From a virus: DNA of 64,000 nt. The notes beneath the pieces were generated by a model. That model was not told the DNA's origin, ran no database searches, and saw only the letters and a list, made by a program, of their open reading frames with translations. Of this stretch, positions 5,053 through 49,892 are shown one piece after another (the first letter of the stretch is position 1; each line of letters starts with the position of its first letter). The DNA lies in the IMG/VR virus record IMGVR_UViG_3300045988_085064; one strand, written 5' to 3'. The translations under genes were made by a program, and so were the position numbers.

Positions 5053-5081
5053 TTGACAAATAAAATCAAGTATGGTATAAT
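5053..5081 (+). promoter_or_regulatory. consensus promoter (P4) of the 1-kb tRNA/structured-RNA transcript
   Basis: TTGACA 5053-5058, 17-nt spacer, TGgTATAAT. Confidence 0.7.
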
Positions 5082-5092
5082 TGAAAATGTAA

Positions 5093-5267
5093 ATAATATC
5101 CGACCGGATTTGAAGATAACCGTCAAAATCTATATCACGCCTGTACTGAGGTCTGCGCAGAGTTTGAGAAGCGGCAGATACAGACTAGAGAATTGGGGTC
5201 GCGCCTGAGCGTGTTCCGTTAGCATGAGGACAAAAACATAACGGCAAAGGTGATATAAGGATATTAT
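5093..5267 (+). ncRNA. closed structured RNA domain D1 (unknown class)
   Basis: ATAATATCC (5093-5101) pairs with GGATATTAT (5259-5267). Nested inside it, TATATCAC (5131-5138) pairs with GTGATATA (5250-5257). No ORF. Confidence 0.35.
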
Positions 5268-5335
5268 GTAAACATCATTCACGGGTCAGTGCTAGAAATA
5301 GCTATGAGGTAGGAAGCTGGCTTGAGATAAAATAT

Positions 5336-6477: not shown

Positions 6478-6506
6478 TTGACAAATTGTCGCTATGGTGC
6501 TATACT
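6478..6506 (+). promoter_or_regulatory. sigma70-type promoter (P5)
   Basis: TTGACA 6478-6483, 17-nt spacer, TGcTATACT. Confidence 0.7.
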
Positions 6507-6535
6507 TAAATCATCAAATGAAGGAGCTGAACATT

Positions 6536-7375
6536 ATGAATGAACTGTTTATTATGAGCCTCAAGGCAAAGCATCGTAGCGAAGGCACTGTTCGTGAATA
6601 TACCAAGGCGATTGAGAATTGCATGGCTTATGTCAATAAGCCTGAAGCTGAAATCAAGCCGATTGACCTTGAATTGTGGCAGTCCAGCATGAGCAATCTC
6701 AGCTCTGCATCTGTTGCTCAGAGAACATCTGCGGTCAGAGAATACTTCAAATTCCTTTATCGGAATGAATTCATTAGCCGCAATCCGGCTGAGATGCTTG
6801 AAGCACCGCAGATTAAAAATCGTGAGCAGTCAGCTCTTAATGGTGAACAGGTCAGGGCAATGGTCAATGCGGCAACTAATGAGCGCAATAAAGCAATTAT
6901 TATGATGCTTGCTCAGACTGGTTTGCGTATTCATGAGCTTGCTAATATCACGCTTGAACAGTATGAATCCCGTAGTAATAATGTGCTGGTCATCCGTGGC
7001 AAGGGCGATAAGGATAGGCTGGTTGGTCTGGCAGATGAAACAATCGAGCTGATTGATAACTATATTTCCAATGAGCGCAAAGATGGATGCGAATATCTGT
7101 TCGTAGGCAATCGTGGAAATAAAATGGATGGCAAGAACACCAGCGCCATGCTCAAGGTATGTGCTAGAAAAGCTGGTATTGAAAATTGGGAAGAATTGCA
7201 TATTAGTAATCATACCATGCGCCGCACATTTGCTACTATGATGTCTGAGGCTGATGTACCTATTGAGATCATTAGTAAAGCAATGGGGCATAGTTCAGTT
7301 GCCATTACAGCGAATAGATATATTAAGCGTACAGAGCAGAGAGCAATTAACGCAATGAGCGTTGTTAATTTCTAA
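6536..7375 (+). CDS. tyrosine recombinase/integrase (XerC/D-like)
   Basis: The C-terminal sequence HTMRRTFATMM...MGHSSVAITANRYI carries the R..H..R..Y catalytic pattern. ATG 6536 follows GAAGGAG. Track start 6494 lies upstream of the predicted transcription start. Confidence 0.85.
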   Translation: MNELFIMSLKAKHRSEGTVREYTKAIENCMAYVNKPEAEIKPIDLELWQSSMSNLSSASVAQRTSAVREYFKFLYRNEFISRNPAEMLEAPQIKNREQSALNGEQVRAMVNAATNERNKAIIMMLAQTGLRIHELANITLEQYESRSNNVLVIRGKGDKDRLVGLADETIELIDNYISNERKDGCEYLFVGNRGNKMDGKNTSAMLKVCARKAGIENWEELHISNHTMRRTFATMMSEADVPIEIISKAMGHSSVAITANRYIKRTEQRAINAMSVVNF

Positions 7376-32788: not shown

Positions 32789-33829
32789 TTATGCTCTAGC
32801 TGTATATTTTAGATAAATCCAGCCATTACGATTATTAGAATATGCTTTGAGTAGCCCCCATCCATTTTGTTCTTCGACGATAGTATAGCCACCGCCATAT
32901 GGAATCGATTGTACAATACTGTAGCCAGTACCTGGTCCACTACGGACGTTTAACCCACTCTTAGCTGTAATTCGAACAACATAGCTAGTCTTGTTTGTAT
33001 TTGGTTGGGTATCAGGCTTCACCGCTTCCAGTGCAGCCCAAGTGAGCTTCCCACAGATGCCGTCGGAACTCAGACCTGACTTGCACTGGAAAGCTCGAAC
33101 AACACTATCCGTATAGTCGCCCCAAATACCATCAGCACCCCAAGGACTAAAACTATATCCAGCCTTGATGAGCAACTTTTGCATTCTTGCCACAGCCTCG
33201 CCTCTGTCGCCCTTACGAAGCGTCGGATGATTTGAGGATGTAGGAGTAGAAGGAGTTGCCGGAGTAGAACTACTGCCACCCATCTCTGCCGCGACATCCT
33301 TACGGAGCTTTGCAATATCATAGCCCAGGCCCAGGCCGTCCCAGAGGTGCTGCGGGTCCACATGGTCCGTATTGCTAAGACCCCGCCGGGTGATATCATA
33401 GTGTGTTTCTACTGCTGTATATGGGTCCCAGCCGTACTTCTTACACAGTTGCGCAATCAGCCAAACGGCATTTTTATATGTGGCCTTGGCGTAATTCTGC
33501 GCGGAGGCTAGGTCGGAAACAGTAAACCGAGCGCCTGACGTGTAATGAATCTGACGAGGTTCACCCATTTCAATGCCAAGATACTGAGCATTGCCAGGAC
33601 TACCAATGTGCCAGCATTTATAATTGTCTGGCATACAATGCAAAATAGTTGCATCATCCACCATATAATGAACTACATATTGTGAGCCATTATTTTGCCA
33701 ATAATTATATAGTGCCTTAGCACTTGGTTGTGGTGTACCAATAGAATGTAGCACAACGCCTCTAGGTGTAAATTTTTGAGCTGCCTTGTATCGACTGTTC
33801 CCAGTACAAATTGCTTCTGTAATGACCAT
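32789..33829 (-). CDS. endolysin: N-acetylmuramoyl-L-alanine amidase + PG_binding_1 + SH3-like domain
   Basis: Amidase_2-like VVLHSIG...CWHIGSPGNAQYLGIEM...HVDP. LRKGDRGEAVARMQKLLIKAGY matches a PG-binding repeat. The C-terminal LNVRSGPGTGYSIV is SH3-like. Confidence 0.9.
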   Translation of the reverse strand: MVITEAICTGNSRYKAAQKFTPRGVVLHSIGTPQPSAKALYNYWQNNGSQYVVHYMVDDATILHCMPDNYKCWHIGSPGNAQYLGIEMGEPRQIHYTSGARFTVSDLASAQNYAKATYKNAVWLIAQLCKKYGWDPYTAVETHYDITRRGLSNTDHVDPQHLWDGLGLGYDIAKLRKDVAAEMGGSSSTPATPSTPTSSNHPTLRKGDRGEAVARMQKLLIKAGYSFSPWGADGIWGDYTDSVVRAFQCKSGLSSDGICGKLTWAALEAVKPDTQPNTNKTSYVVRITAKSGLNVRSGPGTGYSIVQSIPYGGGYTIVEEQNGWGLLKAYSNNRNGWIYLKYTARA

Positions 33830-42165: not shown

Positions 42166-42993
42166 TTACTCACTCCATACTAAGTTTAGACTATTATCTT
42201 CATTTTTTGTCAGTTTATAATTTATCCCTATATCATTTGGGGTTAATACAACTACGCCTGTTTTACCATTAACTGAATCAACATTGCCGCCAGTAGATAT
42301 TGTCACATCACCAGTCTGCCCGTTTACAGATGTTACAGGATATGGAGGTGGATTACTTATACTATATTGTTTAACATTATCAACATTCCCAAGCCCAACA
42401 TCAGTTTTCCCAATCACCACCGTGCCAGTCTTGCTATTAACGCTCTGAACCGGAGCGGCATTCTTAGCAGCTGTAATATCTACATATTCACTATCGTTCT
42501 CAAGTTGACTCGTTTTAGTCGGAACAGCGGATTCCGTGATATAGCCACTATCATTGGTAAGGTCTGACGTTTTATTAGGAATTTTTGTCCCAGACGGCAA
42601 CGCTCCAACATCTGCCGCTGTCAAAACCACATCTCCTGTTTTGCCATTAACCGACTGCACCCCAGATTCACCAGTGCTTGTATCTGCAAATATGAGCGTA
42701 AACGCTTGAGACATATTACCAAATGGAACAAATACTCTATAGGCATTGCCAACAATAGGCGTACCACCATAATAAGCAATATTGCTATATGTGTTGCCAT
42801 TTATTTTCATCGTACAGACGCTAGTTGATATCTCTGTAACTATGCCACTATATATCACGGCATTATTCTTTGCCGATTTCTCTGCTAAAATTTCAATAGC
42901 ATCTAGTAGTTCATTTGCTTCGTTAATGTTGTACACCTCTATTCTTATAAAAATCCGGGTCAACACCGTGGTATCAACCCGGATATATATCAA
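42166..42993 (-). CDS. tail fibre protein with SVNGKTG repeats
   Basis: VQSVNGKTGDVVL, VQSVNSKTGTVVI, VTSVNGQTGDVTI and VDSVNGKTGVVVL. TTG start overlaps the TMP stop. Confidence 0.55.
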   Translation of the reverse strand: MIYIRVDTTVLTRIFIRIEVYNINEANELLDAIEILAEKSAKNNAVIYSGIVTEISTSVCTMKINGNTYSNIAYYGGTPIVGNAYRVFVPFGNMSQAFTLIFADTSTGESGVQSVNGKTGDVVLTAADVGALPSGTKIPNKTSDLTNDSGYITESAVPTKTSQLENDSEYVDITAAKNAAPVQSVNSKTGTVVIGKTDVGLGNVDNVKQYSISNPPPYPVTSVNGQTGDVTISTGGNVDSVNGKTGVVVLTPNDIGINYKLTKNEDNSLNLVWSE

Positions 42994-45900
42994 CGTCTGC
43001 TAAAAGCTCTCTGGTATGCTAATGCTTTTACATTTTCTACAAATTTCCTTGCATCTGCCGCAGTCTGAATATTCGGGAATGACATAGTAGTATTATTAAA
43101 TTCCATACTCATACCCGCTGGATTTCTATTTGATATAGCAATACCTTTATTATCTATAACAGACCTACCCAGATTCCAAAGATTCTTTGTGATATTGCTT
43201 GGAATAATTCCATCACCAGAGTTAAGTACCCTAAGTTCTGGGCCATTTTCACCAACCATATGAAGCCCACTTGTGCTAGATAATGTTCCATTTGCATATC
43301 CAGTAATAGAACTTAGTTTCTTATTGATTTCGTCCTGTTGCTTGATTACCTTGGCAAGTTCAGCGTCGCGTTTTGCCTCAATCACAGATTTCTTTGCTTC
43401 AAGGCTCTTGCTACGATTGTATTCATTTAGAGCTTCTTGCGCCGTGGCAATTGCATCATAATCTTGAGCGTATTGATATCGTCCATCCTTAAAAGTATAC
43501 ACCCGCTTAGAACGAGCCTCTGCTAGGTTCTTTAGCAACCCCTCATATTTAATTTGGTCTTCTAACTTATTGTTTGTATCTTCAAGCGCCTTAATCTCTG
43601 CATTATACTTATCATTGATTGCGCTCTGAGTCTCTTTGAGGGCTTTAAGCTGCGCATTCAAATTATCCTTTATCTGGGATTTTTCCCATTTGTATATCTC
43701 CTCTTGATATTTCCAATATTCCTTTTGATACTCTTGCCGCCCTTGGAAATATTTTTTATTCATCTCTTCAAGCTCTTTATAATATTGAGCTTCAGAAATT
43801 TCATCCATTGCCAAAGCGTGTTTCTTGGCGTCTAACCAAGCATCAAATTCATCTTTCCAAATATCTTTAGAACTCTTACTAGAACCTGAAGATGAAGATG
43901 AACTTGAACCAGATGAGCCAGAACTACTAGCAGAAGAATAAGACGAAGTAGGATATGAGCCACTTGTTTCCCTGCTTTTAGACGTTTTAGGGATTTTGCC
44001 CTTAGCCGTAATAGGCGTTAGTCTCGAAACAAGGTCGAACGAAACTCTTGGGATGTATCCAAGTCTATGTGCTTGAATCGCGCCATGTAATTTTTTCCCA
44101 TTTAGAATAGCTCTAGTCTCTTCTGCCGTATACACATAATCTCCATCGTGCATCTGAGTAATTGTCGGCATACCATTACCAGCGATATATGCCTCATTAC
44201 CACTTTGGATAAGCTCAGGGCCTTCCTCATTTACAAGAGATGGCCCTTCTTTTGTTCTACCGCCATCTGCATTGACTTGGTATCTTGTGTCGCCAAGATT
44301 CTGAATGTTATTCTTTGCGTTTTGCGCTTGATTGGACACTCTAAGTAGTTGATCGCCAAGAGACCTAACCTGACTCGTAATACCCGACAGAGACGTACTA
44401 TTCAAATCTTCCAACTCAGATGTCATCTCTGCCGTTGCAGATTCCGTCTCACCAGCTTTTTTGATAATATCGTCTATGCTCTCAGGTACATTTGTCAATC
44501 TTACATTATCCGCATCTTCCAAAGAACGCTTCATGTCTAAGATGGCATCCTTAGAATAACCAACCTCAGATAACCCCTCTACAACCTTAGTAAAATCGAT
44601 TTCATTAACGCCATTTTTGACTGTAACAATAGAACTATCAAGATTGCTAAATGCAGATATGAGCGCATCAATGTTCCAATCAACATCCGCTCCATATACC
44701 TTGCCAGCCTCAATAAGTGCCCAAAGCTGAGATGTTGTCAGCCCCATAGAATTGGCAAGTTGGTCAAAATCAGTAATATTATAGGATATAGAGTCTCCCG
44801 TTGTATCTAATGTCGCGCCAACAAGCTCTCCAGCATCTGCCAATTCTTGCATAACTGTAACAAATCCAAGCCCGCCCGATTCAGCGTCAGAATACAAGGT
44901 TGACAATCTATCCATAATACCGGCCATATACTCAGCCTTATCAGAAGCGTTGTCAAATCTAGTTAAAATGTCATCCCCGACAAGTTGAGATAAGGCATTT
45001 CTGAATGTTAGAGAGCCAATTTGCCCAGCTTCAAATTCGTCATTAAGAGTTGAGAACACAGATGCAAGCCCCTTAAAAGCATCATCATAGTCGCCCGTTT
45101 GGGACATGGCATTGTCAAAATTCGTTTTAGCATCTGTCGCGCCTTGAATCATGTCGGCCCATCTTAGAACCGTTTCAGCAGACGATTTGAATTTAGAATC
45201 CATATCGCTGGTCGCATCGCCTATACTACCAGCTAGATCGCTAAACCTCTTATATAGCTCATAGACTTCATCCTTGGTAATAGATAATCTTTGAGCAATA
45301 GTATCAGCAACATCAGAAAACGACCGCCCCTCAGAATTAGCAACCGTTTGTACCACTACCAATTGCTGATAACTATTATATTCATCCATCAAAGCATCAG
45401 ATACTTGATTCCCAGCATCTATCTGTTGCTTGATGATTTCATAATATTGTTTGCCGCTTTGAATCGCATTGTCAACATCTTCGGCCCAGCGCTTAGTTTG
45501 TGCTCTGGGACTATCAAATATATTCTTAGACATCCCAGAATAGGTATATAAAGATTTGTAATATTCAGCATTGGACTTTGCGGCCTCGTTCTGAGATACA
45601 GTATTTTCCTTAATGGCAATTCCATATTTCTTAGCGGCTTTGGCAAGAGCCTCGGTATCTGCCTCATAATCGCCTGTTACCTCAATAAGGTCAATCAATT
45701 TGGCCTTTTGAGCAATTATAGTTTGGCTATTTGTAGCGGACGCTATCGTAACAGTGATCTCGGCATCAGCAATATCCCATAGAGCATCAGACATATCTTT
45801 GTATACCTTAGTATTATCAATACCAGATATATTAATATTTGAATTCTTGGTGCCAACAGATACACCTTCAACCCTATCCTTGCTAAGGATTGACGCGCCT

Positions 45901-46833
45901 TCAGCAATTTGAGCTTTCTGTTGGATATCTAGCAACTTTTCATAATATGCAATGACGTGCTCTAGGTATTCCGCTTCTTTATCAATATCAGCGGTCCTGT
46001 CCTCCCATGGCGTTGCATTGATTTCCTGAAGACTGGACTTAGCATCATCGTATTTGCCGCTAATTTCTTGGACTTTATCTCCAAGTTCATTATATTCATC
46101 AATATGCTCTTGGATGGATTTATTTGCTTCGGCAATAAGCCCAGATATGCCTCTAAACACCTCGGCTAATCCAGCCACAGCCACAGCAACAGCAGCTATA
46201 ATTACCAATGTTTTCGGAGCTAATAATGTTGCAAGTAAGCCACCGCCACCAGCAGTTGCCGCTAATGTGGCACTCAATTTAGCCATAGCCGCAATTATAG
46301 TGCCAACAATGCCAACTAATGCAGTTAATGCCGCAGCAAATCCACCTACACGGGCGATAACAGCCACAACATCATTATTGGCAAAACTAAGCATTGTATG
46401 CCCAGCATCAAGGAAACCGCTTACTAAATCCTTTGATAAGACACGATTGGAAAAATCCTCAAATTCAGCCTTGAGCAGTTGTTCTTTAGCTCCAAGACTT
46501 TCCATATACCGCTCATTTTCTTTCATGGCCGAGCCATTGGATTCTAGTGCTGTATTAGTTGCATTGATAGCTGTTTGGTAATTCTTTAAAAGAGCGGCTA
46601 GATTTTGAGTTTGAGTGGTTCCTGCTTGCTGTTGCAGATAATACATCTGCTCATTCTTAGTTAATGTCGGCCAGATTTTTGCTACATCAGTCAATACATC
46701 ATATAGACTGCGAATCTGACCTTCGTCATCTTTTATCGCAATTTCGTGTTCTTGATACCATTTTGTAAGCGCCTTACCAGTGTCAGATGATTCATCTACG
46801 ACTTGGTTTAAGCGGGCTTGTACAGTGATAAGT
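42990..46833 (-). CDS. tape measure protein, exon 3
   Basis: The frame is open from 46832 (after an in-frame TGA at 46835-46833). Sequence LITVQARLNQ..., TM/Gly-Ala region, long coiled coils. Confidence 0.85.
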
Positions 46834-48385
46834 CAATGTATTAACTCGGATTCGTCACATCCGATAAGGAGAATTTATTTATAAAATCAGTTAACAAGAC
46901 ATCGTGCTCGTCTTTTTCTAACACCCAAAATGGAACCCGCAATAACGGAATGTTATTATCTTCACAGTATTTAGTTTTTATCTCGTCATTCTCTTTCACT
47001 GTCTCATATTTCTTTTCTGCTTGTTCTCTATATTTTTTACCACCAAATGAAACTGGCCTATAATGTCCTATTCCATCAACCTCAATGCAAGCATTAAAAT
47101 CTGTTAAATAAAAATCAAATGGTAATGCTCTTTTATTGACACATCTATCAAATGTTTTTTCTTTTTCATATAGTATATTATTATTATTTAGCCACAGCTC
47201 TACTTTTGCAGAAATAGCAGATTGTTTCATTCTACATTCATTGCATTGATACTTTCCATCTGCGAAATGATATGCATCAACCTTAAAGTCGTTGCCACAA
47301 GAGCATTGAACAATAAATGGCGATTTTACACCATTGTATTCTTGATTATAAATGGTACAATCCCAATCTTTTAGAAAAGCATATATCCTTAAATTATCAA
47401 GAGCGTATGGGTTTGATTTGCCGAATCTCTCAAATGAACACCCGTTATATAGCGAGGTAACACTAATAAGCCCACGATAACCGTTTTTGTCCTGAACAAC
47501 AACATTATCTTTTGACCTTATCGTTGAATCATTCAAAATACACAATCCAGATTTCCTAGCAATTTCATGATATTTGTTAGAATCAATATGGTTTGTATTG
47601 ACTTCTCCCCTACTTCTTTTTATCTTGTAACATCTATTGCAGCATTTATCATCTTTTGAATAATATTTATGCCATGTTGATGTAAATTCACCGCCACATA
47701 TTCCGCACTTAAACATGATTGGCATATCAATGTTTGATATATCTTCTTTTTTTGTTAATAAAATAGTACCATACTCATTTGTCTTTTTGATATATAACAT
47801 CATATTGTCATAAAAATATGGGTTTTTTGTGCTAAATGTATGCTCTACATCCACAGAGTAACGTTTTTTATATGTTAAAGTGTGTTTACAAGTGTGGTAG
47901 CTTCTTTTGTATTTATATCCATCAGAATCAACACAGTCATATTTATAATCTACGCCACGCGCAATATCTTCCAATAACGTTAATCCAACTTGTTCAAATA
48001 ATTTCCTTGTTTCTTCTATTGTTATTTTTTTCGACATAAATTCTCCTTCTTGCATTTTCATGCAATGTTTAGACTATTTCTTCATCTCATAGTATTGAGA
48101 GTCTATCATTTCGATTTAAGGGAATCTCACCCACAAGCTTAGACGTACTTGCCCTACTCCTATTGTGATATAGTCACCAATGGGATAGTCGTTTGACTCA
48201 CTCCTATTCGGAGCTTTGCGCCCAAACATCCATTATAAAATACTTAGGTGTTTCCACCATATATCATCTCTATCGTTTTTAATACTTTCGCACATTCACG
48301 CTTGTCAATCTTTCAAGACTACGTTGTAGTGATAGAGCTTTAGGAATTACTGGGTTTAGATAGATATCATGAGGCATATTACTAT
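46834..48385 (-). mobile_element. group-I-like intron 2 (1552 nt) with endonuclease ORF
   Basis: 5' exon GAGGU pairs with internal GCCUC (48375-48371). The last nt is G (46834). Shares core blocks and covarying helices with intron 1. Confidence 0.7.
46841..48037 (-). CDS. intron-encoded homing-endonuclease-like protein (zinc ribbons + PD-(D/E)XK/Vsr-like C-terminal domain)
   Basis: ATG 48037 follows AAGGAG. Several CxxC...CxxC modules. C-terminal LPFDFYLTDFNACIEVDGIGHY matches the nuclease-type motif. Confidence 0.55.
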   Translation of the reverse strand: MSKKITIEETRKLFEQVGLTLLEDIARGVDYKYDCVDSDGYKYKRSYHTCKHTLTYKKRYSVDVEHTFSTKNPYFYDNMMLYIKKTNEYGTILLTKKEDISNIDMPIMFKCGICGGEFTSTWHKYYSKDDKCCNRCYKIKRSRGEVNTNHIDSNKYHEIARKSGLCILNDSTIRSKDNVVVQDKNGYRGLISVTSLYNGCSFERFGKSNPYALDNLRIYAFLKDWDCTIYNQEYNGVKSPFIVQCSCGNDFKVDAYHFADGKYQCNECRMKQSAISAKVELWLNNNNILYEKEKTFDRCVNKRALPFDFYLTDFNACIEVDGIGHYRPVSFGGKKYREQAEKKYETVKENDEIKTKYCEDNNIPLLRVPFWVLEKDEHDVLLTDFINKFSLSDVTNPS

Positions 48386-48774
48386 ACCTCTAGGCACTTA
48401 TTGTTTGCCCTACTTCCCTTGGCGGCGTTCCTCGTGATTTCAGTCATAGCCGTAAGCATACCAAGGGATTGTTCAAATGTATTATTGCCTGTTGCCATAG
48501 CAGCAGACATATTACCTAGGTTCTGTGCTAATTGCCCAGATGAAACAGCATAATTATTTGATACAGCATTAACCGCATCGATAATATGCTCAGCATTATC
48601 CGCTTCAATATTGAACGCCTTCATCTGCGCAACAATAAATGATGCGCTATCTGCCGCAGAAACCGATTCATCCGCTACGTTCTGAAAAGTAGTCGCAACT
48701 TTAGCTAGAGTTGCCGAGTCAGAATCATTAAAGCTGTTTTTACGGAATTGAGTTGCGGCCTCAACCATCTCTGA
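48386..48774 (-). CDS. tape measure protein, exon 2 (TP901-type core)
   Basis: SEMVEAATQFRKN...NVADE...AVSSGQLAQNLGNMSAAMATGN...TEITRNAAKG. The 5' splice site could alternatively lie at 48410|48409. Confidence 0.8.
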
Positions 48775-48795
48775 CGGTTATAAATTATCCAATGC

Positions 48796-48882
48796 TTACT
48801 TGCCCTTCCAGCAAGCAACTGTATATGCAATCATAAATGTAAACCAGCCAACAATGAAAATTGTAGCGTAGAAATCTCCCAT
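48796..48882 (-). CDS. 28-aa hydrophobic micro-ORF inside intron 1
   Basis: TAATG coupling to the upstream ORF. MGDFYATIFIVGWFTFMIAYTVACWKGK. Confidence 0.3.
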   Translation of the reverse strand: MGDFYATIFIVGWFTFMIAYTVACWKGK

Positions 48883-49112
48883 TACAGCTTCCCCCATCTT
48901 TCATCGTCACACCCATATTCAGCCGTTCTTTTCTGCTCTTCTTCAGCGGTTTCATAATGAATGTTGTACTGTTCATCATCAGGCTCTTTTTTAATAAGCC
49001 CATGGTCGTGGTTGTTACGAATACCATACACAATCATCTTGATTAGTGTAACCAGTCCAACAATAAAGAACGCTGGAACAACAAAAATAAAAACCATAAT
49101 TGAGAGAATCAT
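48882..49112 (-). CDS. 76-aa single-pass membrane protein inside intron 1
   Basis: AAAGGA SD, then ATG 49112. N-terminal TM MILSIMVFIFVVPAFFIVGLVTLI and an acidic C-terminal tail. Confidence 0.45.
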   Translation of the reverse strand: MILSIMVFIFVVPAFFIVGLVTLIKMIVYGIRNNHDHGLIKKEPDDEQYNIHYETAEEEQKRTAEYGCDDERWGKL

Positions 49113-49145
49113 AATGTAACATCCTTTCTTTTATTTGGTGTCTAC

Positions 49146-49174
49146 ACTATAACACATATTAGATAATTTGTCAA
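49146..49174 (-). promoter_or_regulatory. consensus promoter inside intron 1 (P13)
   Basis: On the minus strand: TTGACA (49174-49169), 17-nt spacer, TGtTATAGT (ends 49146). Confidence 0.55.
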
Positions 49175-49520
49175 GGGGTTTTTAATCCCTTCCTGAATAT
49201 TTCTTCGCCCTATTTTATTGGAGGGTCGCCCTGTATATTCGATTGACACATCCCTCATCAGGACTTCGCGCCCAATTTGCCCTTTTGTCCCAAATATTAT
49301 ACATTATTTGTGACAGATTCTTTAGGTTTTTCAACCATGGAATCATCCTTATCGTCTTTCTGCTTTCGCACTAATTGTTCATTACTAATGAACATATCAC
49401 ACTCAGGCATATCTCATCCTCATGTTGTAGTGATAAGGCTCTTGAGGCTTTCAAGGGTTTAGGGGCTGTTCTCTATGCTGCTTTACCATCGCAACATACC
49501 GGCTCAGACCGATTTGGTTT

Positions 49521-49892
49521 ACCGGTTCGTCCTACTTCCTTGCCCATATTGGCAAGTTTCTGCGTATATGAATCAAGCGCCGCGCCAGTTAAATCCGACA
49601 CCTTTTTAAATTCTGTTTGTGCCGTGTCAAGCGCTTTAACTTGAGTATACATTTTGCTTGTAACATCCACAACGGCATCGAATACTTGTCGTAATTGTTG
49701 ATACGTTATAGATAGCTCTTTTGTGGCGTTATCAAGCGATTGCGTTGCACCAGTTGTTTCTTTTATTCCTTTACCATTTACGGTTGTTTCAACGTCAACG
49801 CTATATTTCCTAGAGCTTAGGTTTCTTTGTATTTTTTCAAGATCGAGTACAGCATCGAGAACTATACTATAATTACTATTTGTTCCAGCCAT
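49521..49892 (-). CDS. tape measure protein, exon 1
   Basis: 124 codons ending ...TEFKKVSDLTGAALDSYTQKLANMGKEVGRTG. The unspliced frame stops 15 codons later. Confidence 0.8.

Follow-up and report, generated by a model that had tools for sequence, protein, structure and literature searches.

The tape-measure protein (TMP) gene of the virus recorded in IMG/VR as IMGVR_UViG_3300045988_085064 is interrupted by a group I intron, here called intron 1, which occupies positions 48775-49520 on the minus strand of the 64,000-nucleotide stretch that was analysed (the window). We consider intron 1 to be best explained, with a probability of roughly 0.78, as an endonuclease-less group I intron that is fixed at one TMP codon in a clade of gut phages of roughly 70-100 kb and that, as far as its sequence and those of its relatives can tell, would house an independent cassette of membrane-protein genes driven by its own promoter. 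A preliminary description, made from the sequence of the window alone, had proposed to look for the same intron, with or without this cargo, in metagenomic phages and to see whether its open reading frames (ORFs) are conserved there. Among the relatives collected here the promoter is present in 100/100 introns and the cargo ORFs in 92/92 complete cassettes, and there is no cargo-free copy among the complete ones.

A nucleotide search of the region against 50,697 deposited phage records gave no match, and relatives were therefore drawn from metagenomes. They were retrieved from public contigs by an exact match to the first 22-26 nt of intron 1, which yielded 33 viral loci and 69 metagenomic loci; one contig of a metagenome-assembled genome (MAG) was obtained with a 23-mer of the intron core. 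Many gut metagenomes contain contigs of 67-100 kb that are identical or related.

Intron 1 and its cargo genes

The elements of intron 1 and the exons on either side of it are as follows.

49521-49892, minus strand: TMP exon 1, an ORF with a weak TMP_3 match, ending in ACC GGT (..GRTG); junction placed with homologues
48775-49520, minus strand: group I intron 1, 746 nt, 5' splice site after U49521, omega-G at 48775
49499-49508, minus strand: internal guide sequence, UCUGA (49508-49504) and GCCGG (49503-49499)
49173-49498, minus strand: ribozyme core, P2 to P9, with P2 at 49498-49474, P7 formed by GAAUA (49240-49236) and UAUUC (49199-49195), and the P9 hairpin at 49191-49173
49122-49127, minus strand: Shine-Dalgarno sequence AAAGGA of the 76-aa ORF, as read from the sequence
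48882-49112, minus strand: cargo ORF-A, 76 aa, with an N-terminal transmembrane (TM) helix and a charged tail ending in EYGCDDERWGKL
48796-48882, minus strand: cargo micro-ORF, 28 aa, a single hydrophobic helix ending in ..CWKGK; it starts in a TAATG overlap with ORF-A
48407-48774, minus strand: TMP exon 2, with a PhageMin_Tail match (Pfam PF10145, E = 2.9e-11); junction from relative L001, 3' end tentative

To define the boundaries of the intron, a provisional spliced N-terminus was used as a query, which returned many uninterrupted TMP homologues reading ..V(A/G)RTG-SEM-VEAATEFRK. Exon 1 ends in GGA CGA ACC GGT (GRTG) at 49521, and exon 2 runs from 48774 as TCA GAG ATG GTT GAG (SEMVE). The spliced product, GRTG/SEMVEAATQF, agrees with ARTGSEMVEAATEF of the intron-less homologues, and removal of the intron restores both the frame and the conserved protein. 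The boundaries 49520 and 48775 given in the preliminary description are thus exact according to the intron-less TMP homologues. Junctions guessed from the sequence only (GRTG/VEAAT, KEVGQ/MVEAAT and GRTE/MVEAAT) are ruled out by the ..RTG-SEM-VEAAT of the same homologues. The codon of insertion, after ..[A/G]RTG, is identical in all 113 of the 113 loci with enough upstream sequence.

The exon sequences at both junctions are matched by the internal guide. Its UCUGA (49508-49504) pairs with the first bases of exon 2, UCAGA (48774-48770), to form P10, and its GCCGG (49503-49499) makes P1 with CCGGU of exon 1 (49525-49521), the pair at the splice site being U·G. The P1 and P10 pairs are invariant in 10/10 diverse relatives. 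Covariation in the core was assessed in a set of ten diverse relatives in which the cassette was swapped for a tetraloop. Of the 72 pairs predicted by RNAalifold, 24 show compensatory changes; a hand-annotated structure that includes the P3/P7 pseudoknot had 91% paired cells and 20 pairs with double changes. The covariation score was reached by none of 500 shuffles, and all slid controls collapsed. Compensatory changes are present in P2, P3, P5, P6, P7, P8 and P9, with multiple compensatory pairs each in P2, P5 and P9. In P3, GCCC/GGGC changes to GCUC/GAGC (C-G to U-A in three sequences), and in P7, GAAUA/UAUUC changes to GAGUA/UACUC (A-U to G-C in five sequences). A nested pairing of GCCC (columns 61-64) with the first GGGC, as drawn by RNAalifold, was dropped, since it is the second GGGC that covaries and gives the canonical P3/P7 pseudoknot; for the register of P6 and P8, the RNAalifold version is the correct one and the hand-annotated version was off by one. 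Judged by junction, guide and core, intron 1 is a genuine group I intron that looks competent for splicing.

Several public contigs carry a gene caller's annotation of a 37-aa ORF at the position corresponding to 49410-49297 (minus strand). This ORF overlies paired core helices, is partly deleted in L016 and is probably spurious. One intron subfamily (L088, L109) has an extra hairpin, GUCAAG..CUUGAC, with a second TTGACA inserted between P8 and J8/7.

The preliminary description had reported a Shine-Dalgarno sequence, a 76-aa ORF at 49112-48882 and a TAATG-coupled 28-aa ORF at 48882-48796 whose stop codon lies 21 nt before the 3' splice site, and each of these was recovered at those positions. 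Its description of the larger product as a single-pass protein with an N-terminal TM helix is likewise borne out by AlphaFold2, which predicts a confident TM helix at residues 2-35 followed by a low-confidence tail (mean pLDDT 62.7), as expected for a short linear motif. The 92 complete introns (590-1078 nt) each carry one to three small membrane ORFs, one copy having a GTG start; for the first ORF of the relatives an upstream Shine-Dalgarno-like motif was required, and found. None of the 92 complete copies codes for an endonuclease, and the longest, at 1078 nt, has only small membrane-protein ORFs. Where there is more than one gene, the genes are usually translationally coupled, overlapping by one base (TAATG or TGATG) at 30 of the 34 internal junctions. 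In 57/92 introns the cassette consists of just one ORF with a long hydrophilic tail, while homologues of the micro-ORF (10 distinct, 25-28 aa) are found in a minority of cassettes. Pairwise ratios of nonsynonymous to synonymous polymorphism (pN/pS) within subtypes are 0.02-0.31 (0.02-0.19 for related A-type pairs and 0.11 for the micro-ORF), which indicates that the ORFs evolve as coding sequences under purifying selection.

There are 95 distinct cargo proteins, and 81 of the 84 with at least 55 aa are connected by BLAST into a single family. Its members have a single N-terminal TM helix, or in rare cases two to four, after which come basic residues and a charged tail 30-45 residues long. In this tail are a KxPDDxY-like motif and a C-terminal acidic-[W/Y/F]-G-x-[I/L] motif, as in ..YDNDWGYIR and ..DDERWGKL. 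By the positive-inside rule, the N-terminus is predicted to face outwards and the C-terminus inwards, so that the tail would be cytoplasmic. A search of a collection of 5.8 billion proteins with the family profile produced 1121 clusters, all of them unnamed and free of Pfam domains. When the 76-aa sequence served as query in an exhaustive protein search, five small homologue clusters (32-50% identity) were returned. At every place examined, four of them lie just upstream of a TMP ORF or a fragment of one, and the fifth (L008) has TMP exon 2 downstream; these gene neighbourhoods put all five at the same TMP position. When a hidden Markov model of the family was run over all ORFs in 126 loci and the window, it matched only inside intron 1. 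Three relatives (L121, L123 and L125) keep the same tail module without intron 1, and none of them has a family member within 10 kb of the TMP gene. In L017/L038 (~5063-5272), a third cargo ORF, of B type, has a 1-nt deletion in an A run compared with L008, which represents either a frameshift in a decaying gene or an assembly error.

The internal promoter and the RNA helices around the cassette

The following elements overlap one another between P9 and the first cargo ORF, and at the 3' end of the intron.

49146-49174, minus strand: sigma-70/sigma-A-type promoter, with -35 TTGACA (49174-49169), a 17-nt spacer, TG (49154-49153) and -10 TATAGT (49151-49146)
49139, minus strand: predicted transcription start, derived from promoter geometry, inside the 5' arm of the leader hairpin
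49158-49169, minus strand: 5' arm of the closing helix (P9.1-like), AAAUUAUCUAAU, formed by the final base of the -35 and the first 11 spacer nt; also in the minimum free energy (MFE) fold
48782-48793, minus strand: 3' arm of the closing helix, AUUGGAUAAUUU, from 2 nt past the last cargo stop to 6 nt before omega-G
49139-49153, minus strand: 5' arm of the leader hairpin, GUUAUAGUGUAGACA, covering the -10 hexamer and the start-site region
49108-49121, minus strand: 3' arm of the leader hairpin, UGUUACAUUAUGAU, covering the spacer between Shine-Dalgarno and AUG and the AUG of the first cargo ORF

The promoter, located just 3' of P9, has the TTGACA, 17-nt spacer and TGtTATAGT (49174-49146) that the preliminary description had read there. 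It matches 11 of the 12 consensus positions in addition to TG, has the top score in the 12 kb scanned and is the sole 11/12 match with an extended TG among the minus-strand late genes. At low stringency, the region yields 52 promoter matches versus 40.7 expected, which is no more than chance; only the strict motif and its conservation therefore carry weight. The strict motif, defined as TTGACA, 17 nt, TG and at least 5/6 of TATAAT (TTGACA-17-TGnTATAAT), occurs nine times in the 64-kb window versus 0.02 times expected from 100 first-order Markov simulations. The other eight sites are on the plus strand at 2743, 4424, 5053, 6478, 10481, 16384, 18418 and 24668 (~2.7-25 kb), and the intron promoter has the same form as these (cTTGACAaat..TGnTATAnT). 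On the plus strand at ~2-31 kb are the replication genes (Pol III alpha, DnaB, DnaG, RecJ, RecD-like and ribonucleotide reductase) and the gene for a Xer-like recombinase. The eight sites, with their shared cTTGACAa context, lie in this region of recombinase, replication and tRNA genes, and two of them adjoin tRNA genes. Presumably, they constitute the early promoter class of the phage.

Conservation of the promoter was examined at loci with at least 450 nt of intron. The -35 hexamer is TTGACA in 98/100 related introns and TTGACT in the other 2/100, while a spacer of exactly 17 nt, TG at -15/-14 and a -10 of the form TAnnnT are found in all 100/100. The spacer sequence itself varies freely, and it does so jointly with its RNA partner while the promoter layout stays fixed.

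That partner is the 3' arm of the closing helix, which directly follows P9, encloses the entire cassette and is recovered in the MFE fold. For 27 distinct 5' arms, the mean energy of the cognate pairing is -14.0 kcal/mol, compared with -5.0 for non-cognate and -5.2 for shuffled arms, and the arm sequences are completely different between subfamilies. In many copies, the last codons of the final ORF together with its stop codon constitute the 3' arm. In relatives whose last ORF is of B type, for example, UAU AUU AGA UAA (Y I R stop; L008:905-925) is the 3' arm and is complementary to the promoter spacer; the L008 stretch is thus constrained three ways, as protein C-terminus, RNA helix and partner of the promoter spacer. 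The preliminary description had considered that the region might instead fold as an essential peripheral domain of the ribozyme with no translation. This holds in part, as the last -35 base and 11 nt of the spacer do belong to the closing helix; the ORFs nonetheless evolve as coding sequences.

The second helix, the leader hairpin, pairs the -10 hexamer and the next 6-8 nt with the stretch from the Shine-Dalgarno sequence to just past the AUG of the first ORF, and in most relatives it also covers part of the Shine-Dalgarno sequence. Its duplex energy in the window is -10.7 kcal/mol. Across variants the cognate mean is -8.2 kcal/mol versus -4.2 for both non-cognate and shuffled arms, and the hairpin reaches -6 kcal/mol or lower in 31/41 variants. 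Outside the promoter consensus the arms covary, giving such pairs as UAGAUAC/GUAUCUA, UUAACC/GGUUAA, ACACUU/AGUGUG and GUAUUC/GAGUAU. Transcription from sigma-70-type promoters starts ~7 nt after the -10 hexamer, so a transcript from the intron promoter would be without the 5' arm of this hairpin. Correspondingly, the mean probability that the region from Shine-Dalgarno to AUG is unpaired rises from 0.38 in the read-through RNA to 0.62 in the promoter-started RNA across variants, and from 0.19 to 0.65 in the window. Such a hairpin makes sense only with two classes of transcript, which lends independent support to a start site at the predicted place.

Proposed expression scheme, evolution and alternatives

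Taken together, these features suggest the following scheme. In the late read-through pre-mRNA the whole intron would be present. The closing helix could then form, with the cassette in its terminal loop, and would return the 3' splice site to the ribozyme core. In the same RNA, for most variants and for the window itself, the leader hairpin would hide the start of the first ORF, ribosomes would be kept out, the cargo would remain untranslated, and the intron would be spliced to give an intact TMP mRNA. Transcription from the internal start (~49139) would produce a non-splicing mRNA with neither the ribozyme core nor the 5' arm of either helix. The ribosome-binding site (RBS) of this mRNA would be open, allowing the membrane proteins to be made independently of late transcription. 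The logic would be that of the promoter and hairpin of T4 I-TevI with the timing inverted, an early-type promoter being placed within a late gene. As the promoter has the form of the plus-strand sites of the replication region and is the only such promoter among the late genes, the cargo is probably made early, or constitutively if the phage persists in cells.

Sequence conservation differs along the locus, as can be seen from the medians for phage pairs with an exon 1 identity of 90% or less.

Median nucleotide identity, exon 1: 0.56
Median nucleotide identity, exon 2: 0.59
Median nucleotide identity, cargo: 0.44
Median nucleotide identity, ribozyme core plus promoter: 0.875

Moreover, the make-up of the cassette differs between close relatives: A plus micro-ORF, A plus micro-ORF plus B, A' alone, A' plus B, A' plus B plus B', and B alone all occur, in addition to rarer forms with proteins of two to four TM helices. 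The identity pattern and the cassette changes fit strong constraint on RNA and promoter combined with exchange or turnover of cassettes inside constant flanks. The idea that the intron "swapped" its mobility gene, put forward in the preliminary description, is upheld as regards the absence of an endonuclease (0/92), while the swap itself may or may not have taken place: insertion of a cassette into an ORF-less intron would fit equally well. A more comprehensive and distinctly tentative picture joins these observations. The core with the promoter on one side, and the closing arm with the splice site on the other, may serve as portable homology arms for cassette swaps between co-infecting phages; the intron may be kept by selection on its cargo and not by an endonuclease; and one stretch of DNA may act as promoter spacer, as a strand of an RNA helix and, via the partner strand, as the last codons of a protein. 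If true, the homology-arm role would account for a core that is much better conserved than the host gene and than the cargo, and the intron would represent a group I intron that persists through a cargo other than a nuclease, one from which its carrier benefits.

A number of observations do not sit easily with the proposed cassette, or blur its outlines. Retrieval by the 5' end does not condition on cargo, but diverged cargo-free copies could escape it. Intron 1 is missed by the Rfam model RF00028 at E values up to 10, also when only 441 nt are searched; given the evidence from junction, guide and core, we attribute this to a limitation of the model. An RNA helix contains the last -35 base together with most of the spacer, and P9 is closed by two U's of the -35; part of the promoter conservation could thus be driven by the RNA. 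About a quarter of the variants (e.g. L009, L016, L029 and L060) have a weak leader hairpin or none. Recognition of the promoter by the main sigma factor of the host is inferred from the consensus form and from phage promoters of the same form on the opposite strand. Between 48796 and exon 2 there is no convincing terminator, only a weak 6-bp stem at 48714-48695 inside the coding sequence of exon 2, and a promoter-started RNA must therefore continue into the TMP gene. A truncated TMP made from such an RNA, starting at ATG 48768, was rejected: this ATG has no Shine-Dalgarno sequence, and its Met belongs to the SEM motif that intron-less homologues also have. The role of the cargo is a guess, because searches against Pfam, PHROGs, PADLOC, NCBIfam and PDB gave nothing significant, the best hits being matches to hydrophobic segments (E 0.003-0.3). 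Finally, an exact 26-mer of the intron has zero matches in 185,579 species-representative bacterial genomes, and a core 23-mer has a single match in the same set, to a 20.8-kb contig of a 'Bacteroidales' MAG that is probably a binned phage contig; the phage may be temperate, plasmid-like or lytic.

It might be argued that the promoter motif is a mere by-product of RNA constraints imposed by P9, the closing helix and the leader hairpin, that no transcript starts inside the intron, and that the ORFs are translated from late pre-mRNA or from the excised intron. This would be in line with the closing of P9 by two U's of TTGACA, with a helix that runs through the whole -35 in some subfamilies (L029, L061 and L086), with the pairing of the -10 to the AUG region and with the missing terminator after the cassette. 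However, helices accept any complement, and neighbouring positions do covary, yet TTGAC[AT], the 17-nt spacing, TG and TAnnnT are fixed in 100/100 introns, and TG and several -10 positions are unpaired in many variants. The motif also agrees with the phage's own promoter class, and a hairpin that hides a start codon would be senseless if long transcripts were the sole mRNA. We therefore regard this explanation as improbable.

Other alternatives concern the nature of the cargo, for which superinfection exclusion, a toxin and a holin-like modulator had been named in the preliminary description. An addiction or toxin module akin to type I toxin-antitoxin systems would punish loss of the intron and so explain how it persists without an endonuclease. 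In its size and composition, the hydrophobic micro-ORF of 25-28 aa is similar to type I toxins, and the intron is indeed fixed in the whole clade without a mobility gene. The micro-ORF, however, occurs only in a minority of cassettes, 57/92 introns having a single ORF with a hydrophilic tail; conservation is on the cytoplasmic tail motif and not on hydrophobicity alone; within 48775-49174 there is no plus-strand promoter-like site with at least 9/12 matches; and precise loss of the intron would delete the toxin as well. We thus give little credence to such a module. Hardly more can be said for lysis-timing factors (a holin, antiholin or holin modulator) housed in the intron, which we rate as very unlikely. 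A small N-terminal TM helix with a charged tail resembles some holins, and one distant variant has a weak PHROG holin match (E = 0.007), but no significant matches to holin families were found, the window proteins having none in either Pfam or PHROG. The endolysin gene (32789-33829) is ~15 kb away, one relative has a Pfam Phage_holin_1 gene ~9 kb downstream of the TMP start, outside the intron, and the promoter is of the type found in the opposite-strand replication region and not of the late class. In addition, the relatives without intron 1, which lack the family near TMP, must still lyse their hosts.

With the cassette mechanism as proposed above, two roles deserve consideration, both of them guesses. 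The first, which we favour tentatively, is exclusion of, or competition with, other phages at the membrane; the pattern of cassette exchange and turnover leans weakly towards such conflict. Membership in a superinfection-exclusion family was not found: the best match is to PHROG 8545 (Sie-like; E = 0.059, one variant), and PADLOC gave zero matches. The second, somewhat less likely in our judgement, is early host takeover, in which the proteins would act on a cytoplasmic partner, for example in division, envelope synthesis or replication anchoring. An early host-directed function is suited equally well by the conserved cytoplasmic motif. It is also favoured by the strong early-type promoter (at the sequence level), by the predicted N-out/C-in topology that places the motif on the cytoplasmic side, and by the tail motif being under purifying selection in every subtype. 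Among the early products of the Bacillus phages SPO1 (gp56) and phi29 (p16.7) are small bitopic membrane proteins of similar general shape. Rapid turnover of the cassette, with one to three paralogues gained and lost between close relatives, would however be unexpected for a conserved host target, relatives without intron 1 have no homologue within 10 kb of TMP, and there is no homology to any takeover protein. The remaining probability falls to other roles.

Neighbouring features and relation to known systems

The remaining part of the TMP gene contains a second intron and is followed by a strong terminator.

46834-48406, minus strand: paralogous group I intron 2, with an HNH-type endonuclease ORF just 3' of P9; based on core alignment and on relative L001, which lacks it; boundaries tentative
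42990-46833, minus strand: TMP exon 3
42984-42953, minus strand: intrinsic terminator with a 14-bp stem and a T run, right after the TMP stop codon

This terminator would end read-through from the intron 1 promoter. The TMP region belongs to a minus-strand late structural module in a phage genome of ~39% G+C; the module includes a tube protein with a YomU-like domain, a RuvC-like resolvase, the TMP gene in three pieces, tail genes and the endolysin. The resolvase gene (50397-49876) overlaps the TMP start (49892) by 17 nt, and its position directly upstream of the TMP gene is kept in all relatives examined. The tyrosine recombinase on the plus strand (6494-7375) is nearer to XerA/XerC/XerD models than to typical phage integrases.

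Intron 2 matches Rfam RF00028 with 37 bits (the gathering score is 50) and has core blocks in common with intron 1, namely CUAUCACUACAAC, GUGCGAAAG, UUGGGCGC and GAAGAAAUA. In both introns an ORF lies directly 3' of P9 and is enclosed by a long-range helix. The cargo of intron 2 is an HNH-type endonuclease of 398 aa (48037-46841; PHROG 559 HNH endonuclease, E = 1e-39), which starts 13 nt after the P9 hairpin, the same relative place as the cargo of intron 1. The endonuclease ORF that the preliminary description had seen at the equivalent site is thereby confirmed. Unlike intron 1, intron 2 has no promoter-like site, and its distribution is patchy, with L001, L009 and L016 lacking it. The junction derived from a relative without it (..GSRA/LITVQ..) tentatively places the 5' splice site after a C (GGGC/AAAC) and not after the usual U, and a 6-bp P10 (ACUUAU/AUAAGU) adjoins the GCCU guide. 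The helix enclosing its ORF (28 nt, 48055-48028 with 46886-46859, 79% complementary) covers the AAGGAG Shine-Dalgarno sequence and the start codon at 48037, and it could repress translation of the endonuclease in the pre-mRNA. A third, unrelated family of group I introns, with an endonuclease of ~250 aa, is found at varied positions of TMP exon 2 (L001:~500-1620, L008:~1145-1290, L051, L115 and L022). The TMP gene is thus an intron hot spot with up to three introns.

If the proposed reading is correct, a family of about 100 intron copies that always comes with a promoter-driven operon of small membrane proteins represents a new kind of intron cargo. A self-splicing intron would then allow a gene with its own timing to reside within an essential late gene without harming the latter. 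The fixation of an endonuclease-less intron across a phage clade raises the question of how it persists, for which a benefit from the cargo is the obvious hypothesis. With more than 1100 clusters, the cargo itself constitutes a new family of gut-phage membrane proteins, none of them annotated, whose cytoplasmic tail motif is conserved. Furthermore, one short stretch combines promoter, RNA structure and coding sequence, and natural compensatory variants of these overlapping codes are at hand.

Introns in tape-measure genes are already known. To our knowledge, the cargo of bacterial and phage group I introns, where there is any, is a homing endonuclease or, in IStrons, IS605 transposases. Extra genes of another kind, morons, are known from phage late regions: they lie between genes and usually end with a terminator. 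Gene 15 of HK97, in the tail-gene region, is a moron that codes for a small inner-membrane superinfection-exclusion protein. Like morons, the intron 1 cassette is an addition with its own host-type promoter among late structural genes, is patchy in relatives and codes for a small membrane protein. In contrast to them, it sits within a gene, would be rendered harmless through splicing and lacks a terminator. The term "moron-like" used in the preliminary description is therefore apt with respect to the consensus promoter (at the sequence level) and to the patchy presence between conserved flanking genes, but not with respect to a terminator of its own. No similarity of the cargo to HK97 gp15 or to other exclusion proteins was found in library searches.

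The closest parallels to the proposed arrangement are the introns of td, nrdB and nrdD in phage T4, which have internal promoters and hairpins that sequester the RBS (PMC2988022). As in the T4 I-TevI introns, the ORF of intron 1 is looped out of a peripheral helix, and its internal promoter would give a separate nested transcript. In both cases a hairpin hides the RBS in read-through RNA and cannot form in promoter-initiated RNA. The two differ in cargo, which is a homing endonuclease in T4 and small membrane proteins in intron 1 (0/92 with an endonuclease). They differ also in timing, T4 having a late or middle promoter in an early gene, whereas intron 1 has a host-consensus, early-type promoter in a late structural gene. 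Only in intron 1 does the promoter spacer double as one strand of the helix that closes the ORF loop. Another related system is the IStron CdISt1 of Clostridioides difficile, a group I intron with an IS605-family element at its 3' end (PMC3984707). Intron 1 shares with IStrons a bacterial-type (IA2-like) group I intron with non-endonuclease genes in its 3' region, as well as splicing that neutralises the insertion in a coding gene. The cargo of IStrons, however, is a transposase pair that mobilises the element, whereas that of intron 1 includes no detectable nucleic-acid enzyme; intron 1 is also confined to one site (113/113 loci) and brings its own consensus promoter.

The preliminary description knew of no precedent for this type of cargo in a group I intron, and we likewise found none in the literature. 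Nor could we find a description of a fixed endonuclease-less phage intron that has a host-consensus promoter and membrane-protein genes as invariant cargo, with the promoter woven into peripheral helices. An intron-internal promoter as such is not new, as the T4 introns have it; what is new is only the cargo and the timing class.

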